This document shows positions 16,249-35,625 of a stretch of DNA of 64,000 nucleotides, one piece after another. Positions within the stretch are counted from its first letter, which is position 1. Every line of letters begins with the position of its first letter. This stretch comes from Candidatus Levyibacteriota bacterium (GTDB lineage Bacteria; Patescibacteriota; Microgenomatia; Levybacterales; UBA12049): the NCBI GenBank assembly GCA_030651475.1, contig JAUSEW010000029.1:21777-85776 (forward strand), written 5' to 3'. Both the position numbers and the translations under genes were made by a program. Below the pieces are notes generated by a model. The model made no database searches, was not told where the DNA came from, and saw only the letters and a program-made list of their open reading frames with translations.

Positions 16249-17531
16249 ATAACATTTTGGGGATTTTCAAGAACAGCATTAATACTCCTGAAGTAAGGAA
16301 AAAACTTATTTTTACAGCTTTAATATTCATAGTATTTAGAATATTTGCCCACATACCTGTGTCAGGAGTAGATCTCGTTGCTCTTAAAACCCTTTTTTCT
16401 CAAAATCAATTTTTAGGACTTTTGGATGTTTTTTCAGGGGGAACGCTTGCTAATTTTTCCATTATGGCATTGGGTTTAAATCCCTATATTAATGCTTCAA
16501 TAATTTTGCAACTTTTAACCATGGTATTTCCCAAACTTGAAGAGTTATCGAAAGAAGGAGAAGCGGGTAGGCAAAAAATAAATCAATATACGAGAATGCT
16601 AACGGTGCCTTTGGCGCTTGTACAGGGTGTTGGTATGTACGCACTTTTAAAAAGTCAAAATATTATTTCATTTCTTCCGCCGATAAATTTAATTTCTTTT
16701 CTTCTTACGATGGTAGCAGGGACAATGCTTATGGTTTGGTTTGGAGAACTTATTTCGGAAAAAGGTGTTGGTAATGGAATATCACTTCTTATTTTTGCCG
16801 GAATAGTTGGAAGAATCCCGGTTATTTTTGCTCAAACAGCCGCTACGACAACAGCGACCAACATACTAAATATTATTGTTTTTCTCGTAATGGGGCTTTT
16901 AGTAATTGCTTCAATAGTCATTATAAACGAAGCAACAAGGCAGATAACTGTGTATTATGCCAAGAGAGTTAGGGGAAATAAAATGTATGGCGGTCAGTCA
17001 ACCCACCTTCCCCTTAGAGTTAATCAAGCTGGAGTAATCCCTATAATTTTCGCAGTGTCTTTAGTTCTTTTGCCCTCTTTAATTGCTAATTATTTAACGG
17101 CGTCCAGCAATCCTTCCTTAAGAAGCGTTGCGACAACGATCTCTTTGTGGTTTAATCCAGAAGGGATATTCTATAATGCTTTGTATTTTTTCTTGGTAGT
17201 AGGATTTACGTATTTTTATACGGCAGTGATTTTTAATCCAAAGAAAATTTCCGAAGAGATCCAAAAATACGGAGGTTTTATTCCAGGTATTAGGCCTGGC
17301 AGCCCTACGGCTTCGTATCTAAATTATATTCTAACAAGGATAACTTTGGCCGGAGCAATTTTCCTAGGTATTATAGCCATATTTCCTACAATCGCCAAAC
17401 TTTTTTCAAACGTTCAGACTCTTATTCTGGGAGGCACAGGGATATTGATTGTCGTATCGGTTGTCCTGGAAACAATAAAAGCGATAGAAGCGCAGCTTGT
17501 TATGAGAAATTACGAAGGATACAATAAATAG
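16245..17531 (+). CDS. secY: preprotein translocase subunit SecY
   Basis: 428 aa; 10-TM pattern and SecY signatures; spc operon position. Confidence 0.95.
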
Positions 17532-17548
17532 TGAGCGGAGTCGAATCT

Positions 17549-18085
17549 ATGAAGATAATTTTAATAGGAATTCAGGGAGCAGGAAAATCAACTCAGGGGA
17601 ATTTACTTTCGGAAAAATTAAAAATTCCTTATCTCTCAACAGGGCATATTTTTAGATTTCTGGCAAAAGAGAAAACTAAACTTGGCCGCTATATAAAAGA
17701 GATAATGAATGCCGGATATCTTATTCCGGATAAAAAAACAGTTTCTATTGTCAGCAATTATCTTAAACGTCCGGAATATGCTAATGGCTATATCTTGGAT
17801 GGTTTTCCGAGAACCCTTGATCAGGTAAAAGAATTTAAAAACGGAGTTGATAAAGTAGTTTATTTAAAAGTTTCAGATAAAGAGGCTCTCTGGAGACTTT
17901 CCTATAGAAATGGAGACAACAGAGAAGACGAGACCCTAGCTGCTCTTAGGAAAAGAATTGAGCTTTTTCATAAGCTCACAGAACCTGTTTTGGATTATTA
18001 TAAGAACAAAGGGAATTTAGTTGAGGTAGACGGAGAAAAAGCAGTTGAGGAAGTGCATAAAGAAATTTTGGAAAAGATAAAATAA
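17549..18085 (+). CDS. adk: adenylate kinase (short type, no zinc lid)
   Basis: P-loop GIQGAGKSTQ, GFPRTLDQ motif; ATG 17549 preferred over GTG 17531. Confidence 0.85.
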   Translation: MKIILIGIQGAGKSTQGNLLSEKLKIPYLSTGHIFRFLAKEKTKLGRYIKEIMNAGYLIPDKKTVSIVSNYLKRPEYANGYILDGFPRTLDQVKEFKNGVDKVVYLKVSDKEALWRLSYRNGDNREDETLAALRKRIELFHKLTEPVLDYYKNKGNLVEVDGEKAVEEVHKEILEKIK

Positions 18086-18107: not shown

Positions 18108-18662
18108 ATGATCATTGTTTTTATCGGGCCACCATATGCCGGCAAAGATACTCAAGGAAGACTTTTAAGTCAGGAGTTTGGAAATATGCCCATTTTTAGT
18201 ATGGGTCATTTAATTCGTGAAGCACGAGAGTCTGGCAACGAAACGTTTATAAAAGCTTACGATGCATATGCTTTGAAAGGATTCCATCTTCCAACAGCGA
18301 TAAAATTTCCTTTACTTAAGGAAAAAATGGATCAAGCAAGAGACGGATTTATATTGGATAATTTTCCGGCAACAAAAGATGATCTTGTGATGCTTAATAA
18401 CTATTTATTGCAGGCAAATAAAAAAATTAATAAAGTAATATATATAGATATATCAGAGGAAGAGATGAGAAAGCGTTTTAAAAACGCATTCCGTGGCAGA
18501 AAAGACGATGATCCAGATATCGTAGCCACAAGGAGGGAAATTCAAAATCAGGATAGAGTTCCTGTCCTTGAATTTTATAAAAGTCAAAATCTTCTCTCGG
18601 AAATAAATGGCGAAGAAGATATAGATAAAATTCATAAAGAAATTTTGGAAAAGTTACAATAA
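18108..18662 (+). CDS. adenylate-kinase-like paralog with degenerate P-loop (GPPYAGKDTQ)
   Basis: 184 aa; same length and shared C-terminus HKEILEK with adk; DNFPATKDD in place of GFPRT. Confidence 0.65.
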   Translation: MIIVFIGPPYAGKDTQGRLLSQEFGNMPIFSMGHLIREARESGNETFIKAYDAYALKGFHLPTAIKFPLLKEKMDQARDGFILDNFPATKDDLVMLNNYLLQANKKINKVIYIDISEEEMRKRFKNAFRGRKDDDPDIVATRREIQNQDRVPVLEFYKSQNLLSEINGEEDIDKIHKEILEKLQ

Positions 18663-23399: not shown

Positions 23400-23861
23400 A
23401 TGGAGGATAAAAAAATAATAGAACCAAAAGTTGATAAAAAGGATTATATCTTCGCAGTTGGCAGACGTAAGGAGGCCATAGCCGGAGTGCGTTTTCATAA
23501 AAAAGATAAAGTTTCGTGGGGGGATATAACGGTAAACAAAGGAGAAATATTTGTTAATAAAATGCCGGCAGAAAAATATTTCGGAAGCCAAGCTGTAAAT
23601 GTATATAGCGAGCCATTGCGTCTTGCTAATATGGAGAATAAGTTTGCCATAACGGTTATTGTCAGAGGCGGAGGAAAATTTGGACAATTGGATGCTATGG
23701 TTTTGGGTATAGCAAGAGCGTTAAATCAATTAGACAGAGATAAATTTCGTCCGGCTCTTAAAAAACAGGGATTTCTTACTCGGGATTCCAGAACTAGGGA
23801 ACGTAGGAAAGTGGGAATGGGCGGTAAAGCAAGAAGAAGAAAACAAAGTCCTAAGAGGTAA
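23400..23861 (+). CDS. rpsI: 30S ribosomal protein S9
   Basis: 153 aa; C-terminal GGKARRRKQSPKR. Confidence 0.93.
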   Translation: MEDKKIIEPKVDKKDYIFAVGRRKEAIAGVRFHKKDKVSWGDITVNKGEIFVNKMPAEKYFGSQAVNVYSEPLRLANMENKFAITVIVRGGGKFGQLDAMVLGIARALNQLDRDKFRPALKKQGFLTRDSRTRERRKVGMGGKARRRKQSPKR

Positions 23862-24456
23862 ACTTTTTATAAAGTTTTATAAATTCTTCATTTTTTGACA
23901 AGAGTTTAGTTTCTTGCTCGCACCAGACAGAATAAGTACCGGGTTTTTGTTCGATTTCCCTTAAGAACTCCTGCCATTTTATCCATCTTACCCTCTCTAC
24001 CTCGCCGCGATTTAATAAAGGTTTTTTATCGCTAAACGCAATAAGGACAGGACAGATCTCATTTTCAACAATACCATTCATTTCTGCTTTGTAAGAAAAG
24101 TCGGGTAAAATTTCAAATAACTTATCTATCTTAATCCCCAATTCAAAATTTAATCTTCTCTTAGCAGCATCTATATTTGATTCATTAAGCATTGGGTGTC
24201 CGCAGACGGAATTTGACCAAACCAGAGGCCACGTCTTTTTCTTACCGCTTCGTTGCTGAAGAAGTAATTGTCCCTTAGAATTGAAAAGAAAAACGGAAAA
24301 TGCCCTATGTAAAGGAGTATTACTGTTATGTGTTGCTAATTTCGGAGCAATCCCCAATACGTTATTATTTTTATCAACTAAAACTACATAATCTTCTACT
24401 TTTTCCATAATGCAAACAAAAAACTTATCAGTAAGTAGATTAACAAAATCTGCCAA
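23851..24456 (-). CDS. idi: isopentenyl-diphosphate delta-isomerase type 1 (Nudix)
   Basis: HRAFSVFLFNSKGQLLLQQRSGKKKTWPLVWSNSVCGHP matches IDI-1 signature; true start possibly internal Met (MEKVEDYVV). Confidence 0.85.
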   Translation of the reverse strand: MADFVNLLTDKFFVCIMEKVEDYVVLVDKNNNVLGIAPKLATHNSNTPLHRAFSVFLFNSKGQLLLQQRSGKKKTWPLVWSNSVCGHPMLNESNIDAAKRRLNFELGIKIDKLFEILPDFSYKAEMNGIVENEICPVLIAFSDKKPLLNRGEVERVRWIKWQEFLREIEQKPGTYSVWCEQETKLLSKNEEFIKLYKKFTS

Positions 24457-25653: not shown

Positions 25654-26808
25654 ATGGATTTTCGTGCTTATGTAAGTGTTGATAAGAGACGTAAGGCAGT
25701 AGAAGATAATTTAAAAGTTAACCTTTCTAATATTGGCAATTATTCCTTTGATTCAAAGCTGGCATCTTCAAGAAATTGCGAGAATATGATTGGAGCAGTT
25801 CAAATTCCATTAGGGATTGCTGGGCCTTTAAAAATAAAAAGCGATTTCTCTGAAGATGAAGTTTTTTTACCGTTAGCTACAACAGAAGGGGCTTTAGTTG
25901 CATCTGTAAATAGGGGATGTAAGGTAATTACTCTAAGCGGAGGAGTAACTGTTAATAGCCAAAGGATAGGAATAACAAGAGCTCCGGTTTTTGTGGTGAA
26001 TAATCAAAAAGAAGGTAAAAAGTTCGTAGAGTGGGTAAATTCTAGCTTTAAACTTCTTAAGCAAGTTACGGAATCCACTTCATCTCATCTGACCCTTTTA
26101 GATATAAAATCTACCTTCATGGGAAGAAATGTTTATTTAAGATTTAGATTTGATTCACAAGATGCAATGGGCATGAATATGGCAACAATTGCGTGTACCA
26201 AAGCGGCATCTTTTATAGAAAAAGAAACAAAAGCGCGATTAGTGGCGATTTCCGGGAATATGTGTGTTGATAAAAAGCCTAGTTTATTAAATTTTATTGA
26301 AGGAAGAGGGTATTCCGTTTCAGCTGACATATTAATCCCACGAAAAATTGTAGAATCTACGTTAAAGTCTAAAACAGAAAGTATCGTCGAAGTCGCGCAG
26401 CGCAAGCTAATGTACGGGTCTTTACTTTCGGGCAGTGTTGGGGCAAATGCTCACTATGCAAATATTTTATCAGCTATGTTTATAGCGACTGGACAAGACG
26501 CAGCGCATGTGGCAGAATGTTCTGTAGGTATAACAACAGCGGAAGAAATAAAGGGTGATCTCTATGTCTCAATATATCTACCCGATCTCGTGGTAGGAAC
26601 AGTTGGCGGAGGAACATCTCTTGAAACCCAAAAAGAAGCATTATCAATTATGGGAATTAGTGGTGGCAATAATGGAAAAAATGCAAGAAAATTAGCAGAA
26701 ATTATTGGAGGAGCTGTGCTCGCAGGAGAGATTTCCTTATTAGCATCTTTAGCGGATAATTCTTTAGCATCAGCTCATCGGAAATTAGGGAGGGGAGAAA
26801 AAATATAA
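25654..26808 (+). CDS. hmgA: 3-hydroxy-3-methylglutaryl-CoA reductase (class-I-like catalytic domain)
   Basis: 384 aa; ENMIG, DAMGMNM, GTVGGGT signatures. Confidence 0.9.
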   Translation: MDFRAYVSVDKRRKAVEDNLKVNLSNIGNYSFDSKLASSRNCENMIGAVQIPLGIAGPLKIKSDFSEDEVFLPLATTEGALVASVNRGCKVITLSGGVTVNSQRIGITRAPVFVVNNQKEGKKFVEWVNSSFKLLKQVTESTSSHLTLLDIKSTFMGRNVYLRFRFDSQDAMGMNMATIACTKAASFIEKETKARLVAISGNMCVDKKPSLLNFIEGRGYSVSADILIPRKIVESTLKSKTESIVEVAQRKLMYGSLLSGSVGANAHYANILSAMFIATGQDAAHVAECSVGITTAEEIKGDLYVSIYLPDLVVGTVGGGTSLETQKEALSIMGISGGNNGKNARKLAEIIGGAVLAGEISLLASLADNSLASAHRKLGRGEKI

Positions 26809-26812
26809 AATT

Positions 26813-27850
26813 ATGACAGGAATTGTTGGATACGGAACCTATATTCCGAAATATCGTCTTAGACTTTCTGAAATTGCCAAGGTGTGGGGAAAGGATACGG
26901 CCGAAATAGAAAATGGACTGCGTATTTCTGAAAAAGCTGTTCCTGGTTTTGATGAAGATGCCGTAACTATGGGAGTGGAAGCATCAAAAAAAGCCATTGC
27001 TATGGCAGGTATTAATCCTTCTTCTCTGCAAAGCGTATATTTTGGTTCAGAAAGTCATCCTTACGCTGTTAATCCTTCTTCAACAACACTTGGAGAATAT
27101 TTGGGTATAGGAAATAATTATTTTGCGGCAGATTTGGAGTTTGCCTGCAAAGCCGCTACAGCCGGCATGCAGATAACAGTGGGATTAATAGATAGCAAAA
27201 ATATAAAATATGGTTTGGTTGTGGGAAGTGACACTGCTCAAGGTAAACCTCACGATGCGTTAGAATATACAGCAGCGAGTGCCGCATGCGCGTACATTTT
27301 GGGGAATAAGGAAACAGAAATTATTGCAAAAATTCTGGAAATGTCATCCTTCTCATCCGACACTCCTGATTTCTGGAGAAGGGATGGAGCCAAATATCCA
27401 TCCCATTTTGGAAGATTTACTGGCGAACCGGCGTATTTTACTCACATAATTCAAGAGGGGAAAAATTTACTTGCAAAAAGCAAACTTAAGCCTGAAGATT
27501 TTGACTACTGTGTTTTTCATATGCCTAACGGTAAATTTCCAAGAGTTGTTGCTAAAAAACTTGGATTTACCTCCGGGCAACTAGCACAATCTCTTATAGT
27601 TGATAAAATTGGCAATCCGTATTCAGCATCTGCATTGATGGGATTAGCAAGCGTCCTAGATATTGCAAAACCAAAACAAAAAATATTCTTTGTTTCTTAC
27701 GGATCGGGTGCAGGATCAGATGGTTTCATATTTGAAACTACGAGTAGAATTTTACAAAAACAAAAAAAGATAATTACAGTCTCAAAGCAAATGGAAGATA
27801 AGATTTATATTTCCTATCCAACTTATTTAAGACAAACACACGTCATATGA
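26813..27850 (+). CDS. hydroxymethylglutaryl-CoA synthase (archaeal / short type)
   Basis: 345 aa; thiolase-fold HMGCS pattern, N-terminal GIVGYGTYIPKYRL. Confidence 0.85.
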   Translation: MTGIVGYGTYIPKYRLRLSEIAKVWGKDTAEIENGLRISEKAVPGFDEDAVTMGVEASKKAIAMAGINPSSLQSVYFGSESHPYAVNPSSTTLGEYLGIGNNYFAADLEFACKAATAGMQITVGLIDSKNIKYGLVVGSDTAQGKPHDALEYTAASAACAYILGNKETEIIAKILEMSSFSSDTPDFWRRDGAKYPSHFGRFTGEPAYFTHIIQEGKNLLAKSKLKPEDFDYCVFHMPNGKFPRVVAKKLGFTSGQLAQSLIVDKIGNPYSASALMGLASVLDIAKPKQKIFFVSYGSGAGSDGFIFETTSRILQKQKKIITVSKQMEDKIYISYPTYLRQTHVI

Positions 27851-28995
27851 AAATAAATATATTGGGAACTCATGCAACGAAATTTGGAGAGTTATGGAAT
27901 ATATCTCCGCGTGCATTAGCAAGGGAGGCAATGGAAAATGCATTAAATGCATCCGGCTTGAAAGCATCTGATATAGACGCTTTATATGTAGGGAATATGT
28001 TGTCCGGAATTTTGGGTAATCAAGCGAATTTAGGATCCTTGCTCGTTGAAGAGCTGGGTGTTCAAGTTCCCGCTTTTAGAATAGAAGGCGCTTGCGCTTC
28101 AGGAGGTTTAGCTTTGCATAACGCGATTAACAGTCTTAAAGCGGGGCAATATAAAACAGTTTTGGTTTTAGGTATAGAAAAAATGACAGATCATAGTCAA
28201 GATGAGATTACAAATGCTTTAATGTCTGCGGGATCGGACGAAGAGCGTTTGGCTGGTGCAACATTTCCCGGAGTATATGCGCTAATGGCCCAAGCCTATA
28301 TGCAGCAATATAAAGTAAGCGAAGAAGATTTGGCTTGCGTTTCCGTAAAAAACCATTATCATGGAACGCTAAATCCCAAAGCTCAATTCCAATTTCCCAT
28401 AACCATAGCCGATGTTATGAGAAGCGCAAAGATTGCTGATCCGCTCAAACTTCTAGATTGTTCTCCGATTTCAGATGGGGCTGCGGCAGTTGTTATTACC
28501 AGCGAAAATATTCTTAAAAAAAATAAGAAACCCATACAGATTATTGCAAGCGAAGTAGCCACAGACACGCTTAGTCTTCATGACAGAAAATCTTTTACCA
28601 GTTTGAGTGCCGTTGTTGAAGCATCTACGAAAGCGTATGGAAAAGCAGGATTAAAACCTTCGGATATTGATGTTGCTGAAATTCATGATTGTTTTTCAAT
28701 TTCAGAGGCGATTGCAACAGAAGATTTAGGTTTTTCTAAAAAGGGCGAAGGTGCAAGGGATATTGCCAAAGGCAAGAGAACGCTTTTTAAAGGGGATATT
28801 ATTTGTAATCCATCGGGAGGACTAAAAGCCTGCGGTCATCCTGTTGGAGCAACAGGCATAAAGCAGATAGTCGAGCTTACGGAACAGCTTAGAGGAGAAG
28901 CTGGGAAACGTCAGGTTGAAAAAGCAAGGATTGGTTTGGCTCACAATGTCGGGGGAAGCGGTACGATAGCGGCAATTCATATTTTACAAAAATAG
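27847..28995 (+). CDS. acetyl-CoA C-acetyltransferase (archaeal-type thiolase)
   Basis: 382 aa; thiolase pattern with active-site Cys (EGACASGG), HDCFSI, NPSGG. Confidence 0.85.
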   Translation: MKINILGTHATKFGELWNISPRALAREAMENALNASGLKASDIDALYVGNMLSGILGNQANLGSLLVEELGVQVPAFRIEGACASGGLALHNAINSLKAGQYKTVLVLGIEKMTDHSQDEITNALMSAGSDEERLAGATFPGVYALMAQAYMQQYKVSEEDLACVSVKNHYHGTLNPKAQFQFPITIADVMRSAKIADPLKLLDCSPISDGAAAVVITSENILKKNKKPIQIIASEVATDTLSLHDRKSFTSLSAVVEASTKAYGKAGLKPSDIDVAEIHDCFSISEAIATEDLGFSKKGEGARDIAKGKRTLFKGDIICNPSGGLKACGHPVGATGIKQIVELTEQLRGEAGKRQVEKARIGLAHNVGGSGTIAAIHILQK

Positions 28996-29000
28996 ATATT

Positions 29001-29303
29001 ATGATAACATCACCGGTAAAACTTTGGAGAAGGCAAAAAAATACATCAGCTCTTATAGGGAAAAAAGGGAAAATTTTGCAGTGGACAATTATTCGGGTTC
29101 CGGCTAAATCTTTTATTGATCAAGCGCCGTACCCTGTTGTAATTGTGAAAATGCAAAATGGAGAAAATATGATTGGGCAATTAGTTGACTGGCAGGAAAA
29201 AGATTTGATAGTAGGGAAAGACGTTATTGCTGTTTTGCGAAGATTGAGAACGGAAGGGAAAGAAGACGTTATCTACTACAACATTAAATTCAAGCCTCTA
29301 TGA
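29001..29303 (+). CDS. DUF35-family OB-fold protein (thiolase/HMGCS partner), lacking zinc-ribbon
   Basis: 100 aa; OB-fold pattern; no cysteines; position right after thiolase as in archaea. Confidence 0.6.
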   Translation: MITSPVKLWRRQKNTSALIGKKGKILQWTIIRVPAKSFIDQAPYPVVIVKMQNGENMIGQLVDWQEKDLIVGKDVIAVLRRLRTEGKEDVIYYNIKFKPL

Positions 29304-30367
29304 AAAAAATTCAAGTTTCTGCCCCGGGTAAGTTACATTTATTGGGCGAACACGTGGTAGTACACGGAAAACCAGCTATTATTGCAACGGTAAATAAACG
29401 CTGTTTTGTAGAAATTACTCCCCGAAAAGATAGGAAAATAGAAATTATTTCTGAAAATTTGAAAGCAAGTAAGATAGTTACGGAAAAAGAAATTATTGCA
29501 AAAACTAAAGAAGCGCAAACAAAATGGGAAACTTATATAAAAACTAATGAGATATCTCTTCTTAAGTCTATAGCTTCAGATCCCTTAGACTTTCCGATTA
29601 TTGTTATTGGTGAGACTTTAAAATATCTTAACAAAACTTTACCATTTGGTTTTACTCTATCAATAAAATCAGATATTCCAATTGGTTCCGGGATGGGATC
29701 TTCTGCGGCACTTAGTGTTTCTATAGCTGGTGCCATGTATTTATTGTTTAATAAAAATTTAGATAAAGAAGTTATAAATGAAATTGCCTATCTTGCAGAA
29801 CAAAAGAAACACGGCCTTCCGTCCGGAGGAGACAATGTTGCTAGTTGTTTTGGAGGAATGGTTTGGTATCGTAAAGAAACACCAGACTTAAAAATTATCA
29901 AACCAATTCCTTTTTCCTTCCCCCGAAAATTGGCAAAGAATTTTGTCGCCATTCATACAGGTATTCCAATTGAATCAACAGGCGAAATGGTAAGTATCGT
30001 ACGGGGACTATATCAAACAAAAAAAGATTTTGTTGAAAATATTTTATCAAGCCAGGAAAAACTAACACGAGAGCTTCTATCTGCAATAAAGGATGGCGAC
30101 GACACTCTAATGATACGTATCATTAGAGCGGGAGAGAAAAACCTTGAAGCGTTAGGGGTTGTAGGAAAAAAGGCACAAGCTATAATTAGGGAAATAGAAA
30201 AGTTAGGAGGAGCGGCAAAAATATCTGGAGCAGGAGGTATTAAGAATGGGTCGGGAATGCTTCTTGCTTACCATAAAACACCAGTAGCTCTTGATGAAGC
30301 TTGTTTGCAATTTAAACTTACGAATAGTAAAATAGCGCTTGGAGACGAGGGCTTAAGACAGGAGTAA
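29300..30367 (+). CDS. mvk: GHMP kinase, mevalonate kinase-like
   Basis: 355 aa; APGKLHLLGEHVVV N-terminus, PIGSGMGSSAA motif 2; contains 24-bp palindrome copy 3. Confidence 0.75.
   Translation: MKKIQVSAPGKLHLLGEHVVVHGKPAIIATVNKRCFVEITPRKDRKIEIISENLKASKIVTEKEIIAKTKEAQTKWETYIKTNEISLLKSIASDPLDFPIIVIGETLKYLNKTLPFGFTLSIKSDIPIGSGMGSSAALSVSIAGAMYLLFNKNLDKEVINEIAYLAEQKKHGLPSGGDNVASCFGGMVWYRKETPDLKIIKPIPFSFPRKLAKNFVAIHTGIPIESTGEMVSIVRGLYQTKKDFVENILSSQEKLTRELLSAIKDGDDTLMIRIIRAGEKNLEALGVVGKKAQAIIREIEKLGGAAKISGAGGIKNGSGMLLAYHKTPVALDEACLQFKLTNSKIALGDEGLRQE
30105..30128. repeat. 24-bp perfect palindrome CTCTAATGATACGTATCATTAGAG inside mvk coding sequence, copy 3 of 3
   Basis: read directly; 25 nt (30104-30128) identical to 1196-1220. 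Confidence 0.95.
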
Positions 30368-30371
30368 AATT

Positions 30372-31226
30372 ATGGTACCCATAAACTATGGAGGAAGAAT
30401 TGAAAGTAGAGGTCCTGAAACCTATAGGAGTCAGTCCTTATTAGACACTATTTTTCAAGCAACTGGTTTAGAAAATTTTCAAGGAAGTGCAGTTGTTATC
30501 GATTTAATGTCGGGTCCTGGAGGAATAGCGCTTAATCTTCAGAAAAAAGCCTCCAGACATTCTTATGCTGTTCTAGATTATGATCAGGAACAATTAGCCA
30601 AAATAGGGGAGCACGAGCCCGTAAATAAGATATTGGCTGATGTAAGGAATGTATCTTCTGTTGTTAAAGGAGAATCTGTAGATATCGCAACTGCTCGTTA
30701 TGGGATTAAGGATATACCTCAAGGGCAACAGCTTCAAGCGCTCAAAGGTATTAATGAGATATTGAGACCAGGAGGAGTTTTTGTGCTTACAGATATGATT
30801 TCCTTGGAAGGTGAAGGATTGCAGAGGTGGCTTAACATACAACATAGTCAAAAGCAGCAGCTTAGCGGAAGAGAAATTGAAAAAGAGGGAGAGTGTTATA
30901 TCCCGACAGAAAAAGAGTGGCTAGCGATGTTAAAAGAAGTGGGTTTTGAAGCGGAAGTTTTTGGTTATTATACAAGTCCTATTTCTACTGGGGATTGGCT
31001 TACGGGAAATCAATTTGGTAATCCAAAATCACCGGAAGCGGCCAGGAAAAAAGCTATTATGGACGAGATAATAATGAACGCTCCAGAAGGTGTGAAAAAA
31101 GCGTTTAATGTGCGACAAGGAGTGAATGGTATGGAAATTGATTATCCAGTTGTTATAATAAGAGCAGTTAAGAAAGTAGCAGAGTCTGGTTTGCCTACTG
31201 CTGGTGATTTATATGCCGCAAGCTAA
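30372..31226 (+). CDS. class I SAM-dependent methyltransferase
   Basis: 284 aa; motif I VIDLMSGPGGIA, motif post-I ILRPGGVFVL. Confidence 0.7.
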   Translation: MVPINYGGRIESRGPETYRSQSLLDTIFQATGLENFQGSAVVIDLMSGPGGIALNLQKKASRHSYAVLDYDQEQLAKIGEHEPVNKILADVRNVSSVVKGESVDIATARYGIKDIPQGQQLQALKGINEILRPGGVFVLTDMISLEGEGLQRWLNIQHSQKQQLSGREIEKEGECYIPTEKEWLAMLKEVGFEAEVFGYYTSPISTGDWLTGNQFGNPKSPEAARKKAIMDEIIMNAPEGVKKAFNVRQGVNGMEIDYPVVIIRAVKKVAESGLPTAGDLYAAS

Positions 31227-32190
31227 AAAGATTACTGTTTCGGCGCCGGGGAAATTAATGCTTTTAGGTGAGCATGCTGTTGTCTATGATCATCCCTGTT
31301 TGGTAACTGCTGTTGACCAAAGAATGCGGGCAACTGTTGAAACTTTAGATTCTTTAGAATTCCAATTGGAAGCAGAAGACGTAAAGGTTACCGGTTATAA
31401 AAAGCCTTTAAGCGAAGTTGGTATTGGAGATATCCCAAAGGGCGCAAAATTTGTAGAAATTGCTCTAAAAAATATTAATGAAAAATATCCTCTTAAAACA
31501 GGATTAAAAATAACAACTACATCGGAATTCTCTTCCCAATTCGGATTTGGATCTTCTTCCGCATCAACAGTCTGTACGATAAAAGCGGTTTCTGAAATTC
31601 TGGGTTTGAATTTATCTGAAAAAGCAATTTTTGATCTTGCGTTTAAAACTGTTTTGGATATTCAGGGAAAAGGATCGGGTTTTGATGTGGCAGCTGCGGT
31701 TTATGGCGGAACTCTGTATTTCGTAACCGGCGGAAAAGTAATTGAGCCTTTAGATATTAAATCATTGCCGTTAATTGTTGGATATAGCGGAGTAAAAGGA
31801 GACACAGTAACGTTGATGAACAAAGTAAAAGAGACTTTTGCCGATAAACAAGGTCGTCTTAATCAAATTTATAATAGTATTGAAGCCTTGGTTGATCAAG
31901 CAAAAATGGTACTTCTTAAAAGCGATTGGAAAACATTTGGAGACCTAATGAATCAGAATCAGAAATATTTAAGCGAATTAGGAATTAGTATTGAAAAACT
32001 TGATAATATGATTAAAGGCGCACTTGATGCAGGCGCTTATGGCGCAAAGCTTTCCGGCGCAGGAGGAGGGGATTGTATGATTGCTATTGCGACAGAAGAA
32101 AAAAAACAAGCAGTTGAGCAAGGCATCAATGCAGTTGGCGGAGAAGTTATCAATGTTGGCACCAACGCAGAAGGCGCAAGAGTGGAATAA
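31204..32190 (+). CDS. GHMP kinase (mevalonate / phosphomevalonate kinase; assignment ambiguous)
   Basis: 328 aa; APGKLMLLGEHAVVY, GFGSSSAS, KLSGAGGGDCMIA motifs; 23-nt overlap with upstream methyltransferase gene. Confidence 0.7.
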   Translation: MIYMPQAKKITVSAPGKLMLLGEHAVVYDHPCLVTAVDQRMRATVETLDSLEFQLEAEDVKVTGYKKPLSEVGIGDIPKGAKFVEIALKNINEKYPLKTGLKITTTSEFSSQFGFGSSSASTVCTIKAVSEILGLNLSEKAIFDLAFKTVLDIQGKGSGFDVAAAVYGGTLYFVTGGKVIEPLDIKSLPLIVGYSGVKGDTVTLMNKVKETFADKQGRLNQIYNSIEALVDQAKMVLLKSDWKTFGDLMNQNQKYLSELGISIEKLDNMIKGALDAGAYGAKLSGAGGGDCMIAIATEEKKQAVEQGINAVGGEVINVGTNAEGARVE

Positions 32191-32194
32191 AATT

Positions 32195-32971
32195 ATGGGA
32201 CATGAAGCATCATTAGTGCCAGATATTTTGCCTCCAGGTAGAAGAATTGCTCTGATAGATATAGATGGTACATTGACTGAGGGTCTTACCATCTCTTCGT
32301 TTGCTGAATACTTAGACAATAACGATTCTTTTAATTCATCTTCGTGGGATCATATGCAGGAAGATTTTTCTCGTTATAGCGCCAGCGATCATGGACATGC
32401 TGCTTATGAGCAATTTGCCGTAGATTTAGTATTGCATTATGCTGATGGATTAAGAGACTACAGAGTAAGCGATGTCGAAGCTATGGCTGGCAAGTTTTTT
32501 GTTTCTGTGCAAAGAAATGAGGTTCCTGAATACAGAGTGTATCCATTTTCTCCTCAGCTAGTTCATCTTATGAATAAAATAGGAACAACAATAGCAGTTT
32601 CCGGTTCTCCAGCTGAGTCACTTGCTCCGTTAAAACGCATTCTTAATTTAGGAGATTTAAGAGCTACTGCTATTGGACAAAAGAATGGAATCTATACAGG
32701 AAGAGTAGATATTAATTTGGCATTAGACTCTGAAAAGAAAAAGGTAGTTGGGGAATATATAGCTGAAGATACAGATAGCGCACGCTCTTTTGCTTTTGGA
32801 GATACGATGCATGATTTGCCCATGCTGGAAGCTGTGGGAAATCCTTTTGTGGTTGGAGATAATTCGCATTTACTAGCTGTTGCAAGAAGAAGGGGATGGT
32901 CTATAATTAATTCTGACAATGCTATTGATCAAGTAGCGCAGAGAATAAACACTTTATTTAAGAATACTTAA
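32195..32971 (+). CDS. HAD-superfamily hydrolase, subfamily IB-like
   Basis: motif I IALIDIDGTLTE, motif IV GDTMHDLPML; ATG 32195 chosen because ORF-track start 32081 overlaps upstream gene. Confidence 0.65.
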   Translation: MGHEASLVPDILPPGRRIALIDIDGTLTEGLTISSFAEYLDNNDSFNSSSWDHMQEDFSRYSASDHGHAAYEQFAVDLVLHYADGLRDYRVSDVEAMAGKFFVSVQRNEVPEYRVYPFSPQLVHLMNKIGTTIAVSGSPAESLAPLKRILNLGDLRATAIGQKNGIYTGRVDINLALDSEKKKVVGEYIAEDTDSARSFAFGDTMHDLPMLEAVGNPFVVGDNSHLLAVARRRGWSIINSDNAIDQVAQRINTLFKNT

Positions 32972-33948
32972 TGAAAGCAACTGCAGTAGCCCCGTCAAAT
33001 ATAGCATTCGTCAAATATTGGGGTAAAAAAGACGAAAAGCTTCGACTTCCTGAAAACGGCAGTATCTCCATGAATTTAAATAATCTTCAGACTACAACAA
33101 CTGTTGAGTTTAATAAAGATTTTAGAGAAGACTTAATTATCATTAACGATCAGAAAGAGGAAAATGAAGGAAGCAGAGCTATAAAGCATTTAGATAGAAT
33201 TAGAATTCTTGCAAAAATAAATTACAAAGCAAAAGTAGTAACTAAAAATAATTTTCCTACAGGTACCGGACTTTCTTCATCTGCATCAGGTTTTGCAGCG
33301 TTAACTTTAGCCGGCGCAAAAGCAGCTGGATTAAATCTGTCGGAAAAAGAATTGTCAATTCTTGCAAGACAAGGATCTGGTTCTGCTTGCCGTTCTATTC
33401 CAGGTGGATTCGTAGAATGGTTAGATGGGGATACAAGCGATACATCTTATGGCGTGTCGTTATATCCTAAAAATTATTGGGACATTGTTGATGTGGTTGC
33501 TGTTGTTAGTAAAAACAAAAAAGAAGTTAGCACGACTGAAGGACAAAAATTGGCAAAATCAAGTCCGTTTTTTCCGATTCGTTTAGCAAGAATAAAAGAA
33601 AAAATTAGATTAATAAAACAATATTTGAAGGAAAAAGATTTTAAAAATTTCGGAGAATTGTTGGAAGCGGAAGCATTGGAACTTCATGCAATTATGTTAA
33701 CCTCAACACCTTCGCTTATATATTGGTTGCCGGGAACTTTGAAAGTTATGCATGCTGTTAAAAGATGGAGAGCTGAAGGATTACAAGTTTATTTTACTGT
33801 TAATACAGGGCAGGATATTCATCTGATTTGTCAAAAAAAAGACGTTGAAAAAGTTGTTAAAAAAGCAGAAGAGATATTAGATGTTCAAAAAACAATTGTC
33901 AATTATCCTAGCAAAGGAGCGCATTTAATTTCAGCACATCTTTTTTAA
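32971..33948 (+). CDS. mvaD: diphosphomevalonate decarboxylase
   Basis: 325 aa; SNIAFVKYWGKKDE, GLSSSASGFAAL. Confidence 0.88.
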   Translation: MKATAVAPSNIAFVKYWGKKDEKLRLPENGSISMNLNNLQTTTTVEFNKDFREDLIIINDQKEENEGSRAIKHLDRIRILAKINYKAKVVTKNNFPTGTGLSSSASGFAALTLAGAKAAGLNLSEKELSILARQGSGSACRSIPGGFVEWLDGDTSDTSYGVSLYPKNYWDIVDVVAVVSKNKKEVSTTEGQKLAKSSPFFPIRLARIKEKIRLIKQYLKEKDFKNFGELLEAEALELHAIMLTSTPSLIYWLPGTLKVMHAVKRWRAEGLQVYFTVNTGQDIHLICQKKDVEKVVKKAEEILDVQKTIVNYPSKGAHLISAHLF

Positions 33949-34838
33949 AAAGTTCTTTTTTCTATAATTTCAACTAAATCTAAAAATTTCTTTTTATATT
34001 TTATTTCCATTTCCATATTTGCAATAATTATTTTAGCGCTCTTTATATTATCTTTAACTATCTCTTTTTGAGATGCTAAGTCTTTATGTTTTCGGTTGGT
34101 ATCAAATATATCGTCTTGAGATTGAAAAGCTATGCCCAATCCCAATCCTAATTCTTTGCAAAACCTTTCTGCGTGCGAAGTTAATTCTCCTGCCAAGGAC
34201 GCACCAATCAATAAGGGATAAATAAAAGAGTATCTTGCTGTTTTTAGATAGTTTATCTTAGAATTTAAAGTCGGTATTATTTTTTGGCGTGATTGAGAAT
34301 CAATATCGAGCATTTGACCCACTATTGTTCCATCAACCATATCGAAAAAAAACTTTCTTACTCTTTGAATTGCAGATTGATCAAAGTCCAAATTTAAATT
34401 TATAATTTCCGTAGCCCAATTGAAGAAAAGATCTCCTAAAAGAATTGCCTGTGAGTTACCGAAATGTTCATAATTTTTATTTCCCCTTTCTTTTTTTAAT
34501 TTCTCACCAATATATATATGAGAGGCATATATTCCATGACGCATGTTTCCTTTATCCATAATATCATCATGGATAAGTGCAAATATATGAAAGATCTCGA
34601 GTGCAATTAATAATTTCAGAACTTTTTCTGTTTCCTTTCCTCCAAAAGCCTGATATGTTAGAAATGCGATAAATGGGCGTATGCGTTTTCCGCCTGATAA
34701 AGTAATTTTTTTAGCATAGTTAATATAGTCAATAATTGAAGAATCTTTGGTATAATTAATAATGCTCTTCATTTTTTTATCAAGGTAGTCCTGGAGATAG
34801 GGGTCAAATTTTTGTTTAAATACTTCTAAGTCGTTCAT
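33945..34838 (-). CDS. short-chain trans-polyprenyl diphosphate synthase (FPP/GGPP synthase family)
   Basis: 297 aa; first DDxxD (LIHDDIMD) and second (FQSQDDIFD) Asp-rich motifs. Confidence 0.85.
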   Translation of the reverse strand: MNDLEVFKQKFDPYLQDYLDKKMKSIINYTKDSSIIDYINYAKKITLSGGKRIRPFIAFLTYQAFGGKETEKVLKLLIALEIFHIFALIHDDIMDKGNMRHGIYASHIYIGEKLKKERGNKNYEHFGNSQAILLGDLFFNWATEIINLNLDFDQSAIQRVRKFFFDMVDGTIVGQMLDIDSQSRQKIIPTLNSKINYLKTARYSFIYPLLIGASLAGELTSHAERFCKELGLGLGIAFQSQDDIFDTNRKHKDLASQKEIVKDNIKSAKIIIANMEMEIKYKKKFLDLVEIIEKRTF

Positions 34839-34842
34839 TGTT

Positions 34843-35625
34843 TTATTTTAATCTTGCTCCAAATCTTCTTTCTCTTTTAGAATAATCAATTAAAGCTCTT
34901 ACGAAGTCCTTCATATCGGCGTCCGGTAAAAGCTTTGAGATAGAGTAAAATTCTGAATTCTGGTTAAGCCAGCCAATGTCGGAAGTTCTTTGTTCGCCGC
35001 TAGTTCTTATTATTAGATCTGCAGGATGAATTTCTCCTTGACCATCTCTTAACCTTTTTAACATATCATGAGTAATTTTGGTATTTTTTGGAAGTTTTTG
35101 TATTTCCTGCATGATTCTTAATTCCTGATCTTCTCCTCCAAAATCAATTGCGATGCAAAGAATTTTTCCTTTGTTGTTTTTTGTCATATCTTCAACTTTT
35201 CGCATAGTATCTTTTAAGTTCAAGGGGATTCTATCTTTTCTGCCAATATGGATAAAGCGGCTTTTATTTTTTAAAAGGTCTGGCGTAATTTCTTTTATTG
35301 CTCCTTCAAAAAGTTTCATTAAATCCTCAACTTCTTTTTTTGACCTTTTCCAGTTATCGGCAGCAAATCCCCAAATAGTAATAGTATTTATAGGTAATTC
35401 CTGTAAATTACTTAAGACATTTTTTAGAACCCTATATCCTTGTTGATGTCCAATAATAGGAATGCTGTTTAGCCTTCTTGCCCATCGTCCATTACCATCA
35501 GGAATAATTAATAGATGATTAGGAAATTTTCCTTCAGGGATACTCTTTAAATCCGGAAATCTTTCGAAAATACTCTTTTTCATAAAGCAGATTGTAATTG
35601 TATCCTGAAAAATAGCAAAATGCAA
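34843..35625 (-). CDS. uppS: undecaprenyl-diphosphate synthase (cis-prenyltransferase)
   Basis: 260 aa; HLLIIPDGNGRWA, TIWGFAADNWKRS. Confidence 0.88.
   Translation of the reverse strand: MHFAIFQDTITICFMKKSIFERFPDLKSIPEGKFPNHLLIIPDGNGRWARRLNSIPIIGHQQGYRVLKNVLSNLQELPINTITIWGFAADNWKRSKKEVEDLMKLFEGAIKEITPDLLKNKSRFIHIGRKDRIPLNLKDTMRKVEDMTKNNKGKILCIAIDFGGEDQELRIMQEIQKLPKNTKITHDMLKRLRDGQGEIHPADLIIRTSGEQRTSDIGWLNQNSEFYSISKLLPDADMKDFVRALIDYSKRERRFGARLK

Follow-up and report, generated by a model that had tools for sequence, protein, structure and literature searches.

A HAD-IB phosphatase-type gene within the mevalonate operon of a Candidatus Levyibacteriota bacterium and its probable link to isoprenoid precursors

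In E. coli, the Nudix enzyme NudB converts IPP and DMAPP to IP and DMAP, from which AphA, Agp and YqaB release the alcohol (PMC6058358). The same chemistry on C5 prenyl phosphates is proposed here for a HAD-family protein encoded within a mevalonate operon, and, as in the NudB route, a Nudix-fold gene (IDI or IDI-like) accompanies the HAD gene in many clusters. The E. coli enzymes are promiscuous housekeeping proteins, exploited in engineered strains and, unlike this HAD, not encoded with the pathway. YqaB is itself a HAD-family enzyme, of a different HAD subfamily from the protein studied here, and the HAD enzyme Cof converts the diphosphate HMP-PP to the monophosphate. Isopentenyl phosphate is a real intermediate in the plant IP/IPP cycle, which involves IPK and Nudix hydrolases, and in the alternative mevalonate pathway that Chloroflexi and haloarchaea use (MVK-PMD-IPK). 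Of the four mevalonate pathway variants known to us, none is known to include a phosphatase; a literature search on mevalonate operons containing a HAD or another phosphatase found no earlier description. CPR bacteria are reported to carry enigmatic IPK homologues, and Hoshino & Gaucher 2018 set their pathway apart as one that combines bacterial and archaeal features; that work left the role of the IPK homologues open and makes no mention of the HAD gene (PMC6107057).

Among named HAD-IB subfamilies, the nearest to the HAD of our 64-kb window (the whole stretch of DNA that was analysed) is TIGR01490 (HAD-SF-IB-hyp1), against which it scores 82.5 bits, below the cutoff of 98.3. The window HAD falls in a clade separate from TIGR01490, with its own cap signature, and shares 22% identity with the TIGR01490 'hyp1' protein of Bordetella pertussis (PDB 3fvv), a protein of unknown function. 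Identity to the HAD-IB enzymes SerB/PSP (PDB 1f5s, 3n28, 1l8l) is 15-18%, and the locus has no serine-pathway context; identity to the HAD-IB phosphoserine:homoserine phosphotransferase ThrH (PDB 1rku) is 14%, and there is no sign here of transfer or of a donor.

The gene (Table 1) lies exactly where the sequence-only reading had placed a DxDGT hydrolase, DIDGT motif included, and runs from an ATG at 32195 to a TAA stop at 32969-32971. All four catalytic motifs of the HAD superfamily (I, DxDx(T/V); II, S/T; III, K/R; IV, (G/S)DxxxD) are present, and they are invariant in 30 relatives. Pfam PF12710 matches with an E value of 8e-12, and the HAD-IB model TIGR01488 gives 47.8 bits against a cutoff of 45, consistent with the HAD-IB phosphatase-type enzyme that had been suggested. 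The AlphaFold model (mean pLDDT 91.4) has the Rossmannoid core fold of the superfamily, and its helices at residues 32-42, 48-62, 68-86 and 91-106, between motifs I and II, form the inserted alpha-helical C1 cap that defines subfamily IB; the best-ranked structural matches are all HAD-IB. Orthologues share 42-84% identity. A chance ORF or pseudogene is excluded by the homologues, the intact motifs and the confident model, and by its motifs the gene is a real HAD-type phosphatase gene, predicted to be catalytically intact. The product would be a soluble, catalytically competent phosphohydrolase with D22 as nucleophile, D24 as the Asp+2 general acid/base and a helical C1 cap; neither sequence nor model contains a transmembrane or obvious membrane-anchoring segment.

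Table 1 Features of the HAD gene and of the mevalonate operon and its neighbours in the window
Feature	Coordinates	Strand	Basis or remark
HAD-IB hydrolase (gene under study)	32195..32971	+	258 aa; Pfam, HMM, AlphaFold model, orthologues
HAD motif I, DIDGT (D22-I-D24-G-T26)	32258-32272	+	DxDGT motif
HAD motif II, SGSP (S136-G-S-P)	32600-32611	+	
HAD motif III, K181	32735-32737	+	
HAD motif IV, GDTMHD (G202-D203-x3-D207)	32798-32815	+	
Type 1 isopentenyl-diphosphate isomerase (Nudix fold)	23851..24456	-	NF002995, 213 bits vs cutoff 127
HMG-CoA reductase	25654..26808	+	First gene of operon; PF00368, E 2e-123
Archaeal-type HMG-CoA synthase	26813..27850	+	Domain match; Hoshino & Gaucher 2018, PMC6107057
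Archaeal-type acetoacetyl-CoA thiolase	27847..28995	+	Domain match; PMC6107057
DUF35/OB-fold protein	29001..29303	+	PF01796; partner of archaeal-type thiolase and HMGCS
GHMP kinase A, divergent MVK-like	29300..30367	+	TIGR00549, 182.7 bits
Class I SAM-dependent methyltransferase	30372..31226	+	Variable slot between kinases A and B
GHMP kinase B, MVK-like	31204..32190	+	TIGR00549, 207.5 bits vs cutoff 163
MVD-like decarboxylase	32971..33948	+	Conserved downstream partner of HAD
Trans-polyprenyl diphosphate synthase	33945..34838	-	PF00348; convergent with operon
Cis-prenyltransferase (undecaprenyl diphosphate synthase)	34843..35625	-	PF01255

The HAD gene is enclosed in a nine-gene operon from HMGR to MVD, with intergenic distances all within -14 to +5 nt. 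It abuts both neighbours, as had been claimed: the stop of the upstream GHMP kinase, at 32190, is followed by a 4-nt gap, and the stop codon of the HAD shares 1 nt with the start codon of the decarboxylase (TAATG). The HAD is probably co-transcribed and translationally coupled with this MVK-like kinase and the PMD/DMD-type decarboxylase. Their earlier labels, "second GHMP kinase" and "MVD", are right as family assignments by Pfam and HMM scores. Every gene family of the classical mevalonate pathway (AACT, HMGS, HMGR, MVK, PMK, DMD, IDI) is represented, and with a decarboxylase, IDI-I and two MVK-like kinases in this full set, the pathway formally lacks no step. By HMM score, however, both kinases come out as MVK, and neither passes a PMK model. 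Kinase A, which occurs in CPR clusters and is missing beside Chloroflexota triads, is a candidate phosphomevalonate kinase. Kinase B, whose best PDB matches are archaeal mevalonate kinases, shares 46-57% identity with the kinase of CPR and Chloroflexota triads, and synteny identifies it as the conserved upstream partner of the HAD.

Comparison of relatives places the window HAD in a small, distinct clade (clade I): about 40 clusters score 233-377 bits, then, after a gap, come generic members of TIGR01490 with scores near 100 bits, and an E value below 1e-30 is reached by 101 representatives out of 1.8 billion. A genome-collection scan with an 11-sequence alignment gave three loci; a metagenome scan based on that alignment found distant, generic HADs only. 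Clade I members (42-100% identity; CPR and Chloroflexota) stand among mevalonate genes in eight of the nine distinct places examined, so the link between HAD and pathway is no accident of the window genome. The usual arrangement is a kinase-HAD-decarboxylase triad. Three loci at 84% identity (L001, L002 and L003) have the same operon as the window; L004 and L013 (48-49%) have the order kinase A-kinase B-HAD-MVD-165aa-IDI-UPPS, L007 (42%) has kinase-HAD-MVD, and L006 (49%) a rearranged HAD-HMGR-HMGCS. In the Chloroflexota loci L008 and L012 (43-44%), the bare kinase-HAD-MVD triad sits in an otherwise unrelated neighbourhood. The three genes are similarly diverged (about 45-60%), which argues that they travel as a unit. 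Two relatives, the clade I member L011 (49%) and a Roizmanbacteria protein, L009 (35%), have no isoprenoid genes nearby.

The best PDB match of the neighbouring decarboxylase is the phosphomevalonate decarboxylase of Anaerolinea thermophila (318 bits, vs 220 for the best MDD), a biochemically validated enzyme (AthPMD) with isopentenyl phosphate as its product. PMD-type residues are a non-Lys at SeMDD-21, Arg at 27 and Thr at 192 (Dellas 2013, Table 4). The two switch positions were deduced by setting the sequences of PDB 6n0x and 6n0z against native ones from Anaerolineae and Enterococcus, together with the published statement that mutagenesis can turn PMD specificity into DMD (PMC9254496). 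The window enzyme is mixed at its specificity positions, with an MDD-like Lys and PMD-like (MPD-like) Arg and Thr; Thr replaces MDD Arg193, and Gln occupies the position of Met in MDD and of His in AthPMD. The specificity set thus appears half-switched between PMD and DMD types, and the assignment of the enzyme is ambiguous. Unlike the alternative pathway, the locus combines the MDD-type Lys with a second GHMP kinase and has no IPK in the window. The sequence-only reading had likewise seen no IPK, and PF00696 was absent from the roughly 50 window ORFs scanned (at least 110 aa, all those that lie outside the core ribosomal-protein cluster) and from the called genes of L001, L004, L012 and L013; no IPK was seen in any HAD locus. 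The non-canonical branch hinted at by that reading is backed to some extent by the decarboxylase, which is nearest to AthPMD and has half-switched residues; on the other side stand the window without an IPK and the representation of all classical gene families. The HAD was rejected as a general companion of PMD, the Anaerolinea and Bellilinea PMD loci being without it.

A sister clade (clade II, 33-37% identity) provides a second context. In both places examined, which come from related genomes, its members lie beside IspH, a ThiL-like kinase and an IDI-like Nudix protein, and the Curtissbacteria locus additionally has UPPS and a Nudix::polyprenyl-synthase fusion; no mevalonate enzymes are within range of these loci. 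The ThiL-like kinase family converts a monophosphate to a diphosphate, and a literature search on a ThiL-like IP kinase found nothing relevant. The two clades have cap and hairpin residues in common that are missing in generic relatives, namely D57, Y71, F74, A75, V79, H81, N174, A176, N216 and F218. These common residues argue that the substrate is identical or similar in mevalonate and non-mevalonate contexts, and since the metabolites common to both cluster types are C5 prenyl (di)phosphates, we propose such a substrate. The clade II context would thereby favour C5 prenyl phosphates over mevalonate phosphates, narrowing the earlier list of candidate pathway phosphates. A Nudix-HAD fusion, P0085, was discarded as evidence for a link with IDI, its Nudix domain having no match to IDI models.

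It is highly likely that the HAD is an isoprenoid-pathway-linked HAD-IB enzyme. Its small clade would be specialised for the metabolism of isoprenoid precursors; relatives occur almost only in gene clusters for these precursors, and a phosphate of the pathway is very probably what the enzyme acts on. The fold, the intact motifs, the operon structure, the synteny in two isoprenoid cluster types and the common cap residues are observed here; the substrate class, the reaction direction (hydrolysis rather than transfer) and the physiological role are inferred. Gene context and conservation suggest, tentatively and at somewhat less than an even chance, a phosphatase for a C5 isoprenoid phosphate, as to both substrate and role. 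Most probably the enzyme would strip the terminal phosphate, converting IPP/DMAPP to IP/DMAP or IP/DMAP to the alcohol, and would in this way set the IP:IPP balance or drain surplus C5 diphosphate in an organism that may need the output of the pathway, undecaprenyl phosphate, in small amounts only. The clade accompanies isoprenoid-precursor genes in two phyla and in two types of cluster, which makes it a concrete and cheaply testable candidate. It bears on how these reduced organisms regulate or redirect their C5 phosphate pools, on whether isopentenyl phosphate really occurs in them as an intermediate, and on whether their 'MVD' proteins act as phospho- or diphospho-mevalonate decarboxylases. 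A specific IP/IPP phosphatase, if that is what it is, would also be of use in engineering isoprenol or IP-bypass pathways; a promiscuous valve would amount to a modest improvement in annotation.

Several observations run counter to a C5 role. A hydrolase that undoes ATP-costly steps while stoichiometrically coupled to the pathway enzymes looks wasteful for an energy-poor CPR cell. The cap, with its conserved acidic D57, has few conserved basic residues, which is unexpected for a diphosphate substrate. L011 and L009 lie away from isoprenoid genes, the clade II contexts number two, from related genomes, and in the Anaerolineae that carry the validated PMD, the gene next to it is not a HAD of this kind.

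The tightest partners of the HAD, kinase and decarboxylase, share mevalonate 5-phosphate and not IPP, which both tells against a C5 substrate and, with kinase B-HAD-decarboxylase as the minimal clade I unit, introduces a rather unlikely alternative. Here the HAD would be a mevalonate-phosphate phosphatase acting on mevalonate 5-phosphate or 5-diphosphate, or on dead-end 3-phospho or 3,5-bisphospho side products of the GHMP kinase and decarboxylase, in flux control or metabolite repair of the lower mevalonate pathway. HAD enzymes favour phosphomonoesters, the HAD-IB substrates known so far, phosphoserine among them, are small polar acids, and the conserved cap residues D57 and H81 could bind a hydroxyl or carboxylate. 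Against this, the cap showed no conserved Arg or Lys comparable to the Arg with which phosphoserine phosphatase binds a carboxylate, and clade II carries the same cap signature beside IspH, the ThiL-like kinase and Nudix genes, with mevalonate enzymes not within range. Larger substrates are distinctly unlikely: as a cytoplasmic polyprenyl-diphosphate phosphatase, the HAD would turn new undecaprenyl diphosphate (or FPP) into the carrier lipid in its monophosphate form and complete a 'make C55-P' supercluster. UPPS and trans-prenyl synthase genes do adjoin the operon in the window, L004/L013 and L028, and MVA/cis-IPPS synteny has been noted (PMC6107057). Many conserved residues of the cap are aromatic or aliphatic (F36, L40, Y71, F74, V79, L86), and the main product of the CPR pathway is presumably the peptidoglycan lipid carrier. 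HAD-type lipid phosphatases such as PgpC and the lipins exist. Yet prenyl synthases are never immediate neighbours of the HAD, the protein has no membrane segment in sequence or model, and the Chloroflexota triads and L006/L007 have it by C5/C6-level enzymes with UPPS not in view.

An unrelated housekeeping phosphatase (for phosphoserine, histidinol phosphate, a sugar phosphate or similar) hitch-hiking in the operon is quite improbable, even though annotation from sequence alone yields just 'HAD-IB family phosphatase', some sources label relatives 'phosphoserine phosphatase', and L011 and L009 lie outside isoprenoid clusters. The isoprenoid association persists down to 33% identity, across phyla, gene-order rearrangements and two pathway types. 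Phosphoserine phosphatase, which the sequence-only reading had named as the rival to its own proposal, was rejected: the SerB HMM gives 23 bits against a cutoff of 144, and neither SerA, SerC nor any other serine-pathway gene was found among the window ORFs scanned, so that proposal is not refuted on this count. Histidinol-phosphatase was rejected likewise (NF052360, 59.9 bits vs cutoff 280; NF052359, 37.7 vs 400), with no histidine genes among those ORFs and no pathway context. Highly improbable, finally, is anabolic phosphoryl transfer of the ThrH type, in which Asp22~P would be passed onto isoprenol/prenol, mevalonate, IP or MVA-5-P to make up for an absent kinase, IPK or PMK for instance. 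There is no evident phosphoryl donor, nearly all HAD-IB enzymes characterised to our knowledge are hydrolases, and kinase A in CPR clusters or the ThiL-like kinase in clade II clusters could do that job.

On a more novel reading, which we regard as unlikely, the HAD would be a dedicated step, and not a safety valve, in an undescribed lower isoprenoid-precursor route of CPR and some Chloroflexota. Isopentenyl phosphate would then be handled, without a canonical IPK, by the HAD together with the decarboxylase, half-switched between PMD and DMD, and a kinase of non-canonical type. The monophosphate kinase could be GHMP kinase A in mevalonate-type clusters or the ThiL-like kinase in IspH-type clusters, and the HAD would generate or interconvert IP/IPP (or DMAP/DMAPP), or pass phosphate to a pathway acceptor.

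The methyltransferase between kinases A and B was rejected as a conserved partner: it is missing in L001, L004 and L013 and unrelated to the methyltransferase of L028, and in L001, a related Levybacteria locus, the slot holds an unrelated 357-aa ORF. The likely start of kinase B is the ATG at 31213. The NCBI product of the HAD gene, MDO8621462.1, is 272 aa long and begins at an upstream ATG at 32153; most orthologues favour the Met at 32195.

The product of the phosphatase gene in the mevalonate operon has a complete HAD active site, with DIDGT at residues 22-26, S136-G-S-P, K181 and G202-D-T-M-H-D207, together with the Asp+2 residue that phosphatases, mutases and phosphotransferases characteristically have. 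It matches Pfam PF12710 (E 8e-12) and passes TIGR01488, the NCBIfam model for HAD-IB, with 47.8 bits against a cutoff of 45, and in an AlphaFold2 model built with 11 homologues (mean pLDDT 91.4) motifs I and II are separated by four cap helices. The motifs, the family matches and the model show that the gene is real and that the sequence-only reading was correct in describing a DxDGT, HAD-IB-like hydrolase. Its claim that the gene abuts both neighbours also held, as 4 nt separate the stop codon of the preceding GHMP kinase from the HAD ATG, and the HAD TAA shares one base with the ATG of the downstream decarboxylase (TAATG). Its fold and motifs place the protein in HAD subfamily IB; it is soluble, without a membrane segment. 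The NCBI entry MDO8621462.1, annotated as a HAD-IB family phosphatase of Candidatus Levybacteria bacterium, is 100% identical but starts at an ATG 42 nt upstream of 32195, whereas most orthologues begin at the 32195 Met.

The protein belongs to a clade of its own and scores under the curated cutoffs for TIGR01490 (82.5 bits against 98.3), SerB (23 against 144) and two HAD-type histidinol phosphatase models (60 and 38 against 280 and 400). Phosphoserine phosphatase, the competing identity considered in the sequence-only reading, was thus not indicated by the SerB score, and neither SerA nor SerC was found in a scan of approximately 50 window ORFs with a minimum length of 110 aa, which took in every such ORF beyond the core ribosomal-protein cluster. 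The same ORFs contained no BacA/PAP2 and, as that reading had noted, no amino-acid-kinase-fold isopentenyl phosphate kinase (IPK).

The HAD gene is the eighth of nine in an operon with -14 to +5 nt between successive genes, and is co-transcribed with the decarboxylase gene that it overlaps. The order is HMG-CoA reductase, archaeal-type HMG-CoA synthase, archaeal-type thiolase, DUF35/OB partner, GHMP kinase A, SAM methyltransferase, GHMP kinase B, HAD and MVD-like decarboxylase. Genes for a trans-prenyl synthase and a cis-prenyltransferase (UPPS) are convergent with the operon, and a type 1 IPP isomerase (NF002995, 213 bits against 127) is encoded on the opposite strand, approximately 1.2 kb upstream of where the operon's first gene lies and 8 kb from HAD. 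This layout agrees with the Microgenomates pattern of bacterial-type lower-pathway genes, archaeal-type thiolase and cis-prenyltransferase synteny described by Hoshino and Gaucher in 2018, whose text reports IPK homologues without an assigned role in some CPR and makes no mention of a phosphatase (PMC6107057). With 182.7 bits for A and 207.5 for B, the two GHMP kinases exceed the mevalonate kinase cutoff of 163 bits, and neither passes any phosphomevalonate kinase model. Kinase A may act as a PMK or may phosphorylate a different monophosphate, for instance IP; it is absent beside the Chloroflexota triads (kinase B, HAD and decarboxylase). The methyltransferase slot is variable, being occupied in L001 by an unrelated 357-aa ORF without family hits and empty in L004 and L013.

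Coordinates of the phosphatase gene and associated features in the window and in compared loci (L numbers)
Feature	Sequence	Positions	Remarks
HAD-IB-type phosphatase	window	32195-32971	+ strand; 258 codons
DIDGT motif	window	32258-32272
GHMP kinase A	window	29300-30367	~85-aa insertion relative to the 271-aa counterparts in L004 and L013
Class I SAM-dependent methyltransferase	window	30372-31226	between the two kinases; weak UbiE/MenG-like matches
GHMP kinase B	window	31204-32190
MVD-like decarboxylase	window	32971-33948
Thiolase/HMG-CoA synthase/DUF35 trio	window	26813-29303	archaeal-type; already known for CPR (Hoshino and Gaucher 2018)
Adenylate-kinase-family genes, tandem	window	17531-18085; 18108-18662	after SecY, ribosomal protein cluster
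IspH-type cluster	L027	1-3163	Curtissbacteria-like genome
IspH-type cluster	L028	3067-9762	Curtissbacteria-like genome
Acylphosphatase	L014	14443-14745	~3.5 kb downstream of PMD gene; Anaerolineae
Acylphosphatase	L015	14454-14753	~3.5 kb downstream of PMD gene; Anaerolineae
Decarboxylase, frameshifted	L008	8791-9757	break near codons 43-61
Decarboxylase, frameshifted	L012	8770-9856	break near codons 43-61
165-aa ORF, conserved	L004	5824-6321	no family hit; between decarboxylase and IDI
165-aa ORF, conserved	L013	9760-10257	no family hit; between decarboxylase and IDI

A word-indexed search returned only 11 close HAD relatives (42-84% identity) before reaching generic TIGR01490 proteins, and a full profile search returned 101 representatives at E<1e-30 among 1.8 billion. 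In a second profile search, approximately 40 clusters scored 233-377 bits and three scored 180-196, after which scores dropped to about 100 bits, the level of actinobacterial TIGR01490 proteins; this gap sets the HAD clade apart from them. Gene contexts were examined at 14 loci. Mevalonate genes surround the HAD gene of clade I, which contains the window protein, at eight of nine distinct places. The operon of the window recurs in L001, L002 and L003 (84% identity), while the Patescibacteria loci L004 and L013 (48-49%) have the order kinase A, kinase B, HAD, decarboxylase, 165-aa ORF, IDI and UPPS. L007 (42%) retains kinase B, HAD and decarboxylase, and L006 (49%) has the differing order HAD, HMGR, HMGCS. 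In the Chloroflexota loci L008, on a 505-kb contig of an ‘uncultured Chloroflexia’ MAG, and L012, only the triad is present, amid glycine-cleavage, MTHFR and GGDEF genes. The sole exception is L011 (49%), which lacks mevalonate genes within 8 kb. Between CPR and Chloroflexota, the three proteins diverge in step (46-57% identity for kinase B, 42-49% for HAD and 52-60% for the decarboxylase), indicating that the triad moves as a unit. The HAD-decarboxylase stop-start overlap is kept in the CPR loci (1-8 nt), with a 4-nt gap in L012. The isoprenoid link is lost in the more distant relatives L009 (Roizmanbacteria, 35%) and L005 (33%). The frameshifts in the L008 and L012 decarboxylase genes may reflect homopolymer error, the contig naming suggesting long-read assemblies, or a pseudogene. 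The 165-aa ORF is weakly similar to the window IDI (36% over 72 aa, E 3e-5), and the UPPS of L004 and L013, at 417-424 aa, extends approximately 180 aa beyond the usual C-terminus.

In a simple neighbour-joining tree, built without support values, two members of 33-37% identity (L027 and L028) fall in a sister clade, clade II (n=19), next to clade I (n=37). In L027, IspH (divergent) comes first, then HAD, a ThiL-like kinase and an IDI-like Nudix protein. L028 (Candidatus Curtissbacteria, MCR4325087.1) has UPPS, a Nudix::polyprenyl-synthase fusion, IspH, a methyltransferase, an IDI-like Nudix protein and a ThiL-like kinase, with HAD divergent from these. The two genomes are related, but the ThiL-Nudix segment has opposite orientations in the two loci, with HAD still adjacent. 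The IspH proteins pass their cutoff (208-222 bits against 188), while the ThiL-like proteins (157-159 against 184) and the Nudix proteins (71-84 against the IDI cutoff of 127) fall below theirs; the ThiL-like, PurM-superfamily enzyme may be a non-canonical isopentenyl/dimethylallyl phosphate kinase. Residues D57, Y71, F74, A75, V79 and H81 in cap helices 2-3, N174 and A176 in the hairpin, and N216 and F218 are common to clades I and II and absent in the outgroup. This cap signature, common to mevalonate and IspH contexts, suggests a substrate common to both; judged from only two clade II contexts, this is more likely a C5 prenyl (di)phosphate than a mevalonate phosphate. An acylphosphatase gene adjoins HAD in L027 and L028; its occurrence near both HAD and PMD genes may be coincidence.

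The best solved relatives of the window decarboxylase are 6n0x/6n0y/6n0z (316-318 bits), compared with 220 bits for the best classical diphosphomevalonate decarboxylase. 6n0x is the Anaerolinea thermophila phosphomevalonate decarboxylase (PMD) with bound mevalonate 5-phosphate, and mutagenesis by Thomas et al., as recounted in the same article, changed PMD specificity to DMD (PMC9254496). The 6n0x and 6n0z sequences differ at YWG[N/K]RD and G[H/M]ALA; since native Anaerolineae have N and H where Enterococcus MDD has K and M, these two positions are presumably the specificity switch. Following the residue scheme of Dellas 2013 (Table 4), all seven HAD-linked decarboxylases have an MDD-like K at the first switch position, an MPD-like Arg at the S. 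epidermidis-27 position, and Thr in place of MDD Arg193. The second switch position is His in five of the seven and Gln in the window and L001; the window enzyme thus combines an MDD-like Lys, PMD-like Arg and Thr, and Gln where MDD has Met and AthPMD has His. With such mixed residues, the HAD-linked decarboxylases are half-switched and could by sequence use either MVA-5-P or 5-PP, and the window ‘MVD’ is not a plain MVD. Neither HAD-IB nor MVK was found beside the Anaerolinea and Bellilinea PMD genes, so HAD is not a general companion of PMD.

We consider the protein very probably an isoprenoid-pathway-linked HAD-IB phosphatase; an unrelated housekeeping phosphatase is improbable. We tentatively favour a C5 isoprenoid phosphate as its substrate. 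The enzyme would take off the terminal phosphoryl group, converting IPP/DMAPP to IP/DMAP or IP/DMAP to the alcohol, and could balance or drain the C5 pool. Cof, a HAD enzyme, hydrolyses HMP-PP to HMP-P, and YqaB is likewise a HAD enzyme. There is a precedent in E. coli, where IP/DMAP are made by NudB and hydrolysis is completed by AphA, Agp and YqaB (PMC6058358).

A mevalonate-phosphate phosphatase or repair enzyme would act on a metabolite common to the triad enzymes, but the clade II context speaks against it, and we regard it as unlikely. Less probable still is a cytoplasmic polyprenyl-diphosphate phosphatase: the nearby UPPS and the hydrophobic cap would fit, but not the missing membrane anchor or the Chloroflexota triads. 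What counts most against a purely hydrolytic role of any kind, including the favoured C5 phosphatase, is the cost, since an enzyme made stoichiometrically with the pathway would undo its ATP-dependent steps. A ThrH-like phosphotransferase would instead take the place of a kinase step, and is the reading to which we give least credence.

None of the four described mevalonate pathway variants (classical, haloarchaeal/Chloroflexi, Thermoplasma-type and archaeal) includes a phosphatase (PMC9254496), and literature searches turned up no description of the HAD gene in mevalonate or isoprenoid clusters. What is new is the conserved pathway association of this HAD-IB clade, its fold and family being already known. 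A more interesting reading, though a less likely one, takes HAD as the sign of a variant, so far undescribed, in the way CPR and Chloroflexota handle C5 precursors. More distant HAD relatives also occur as fusions (P0039, P0041, P0075, P0085, P0140 and P0165); they are joined to a winged-helix-like domain at the N-terminus together with an unknown domain of approximately 200 aa, in proteins of about 510 aa, or to a non-IDI-like Nudix domain, a cytidylyltransferase or a C-terminal HD phosphohydrolase.
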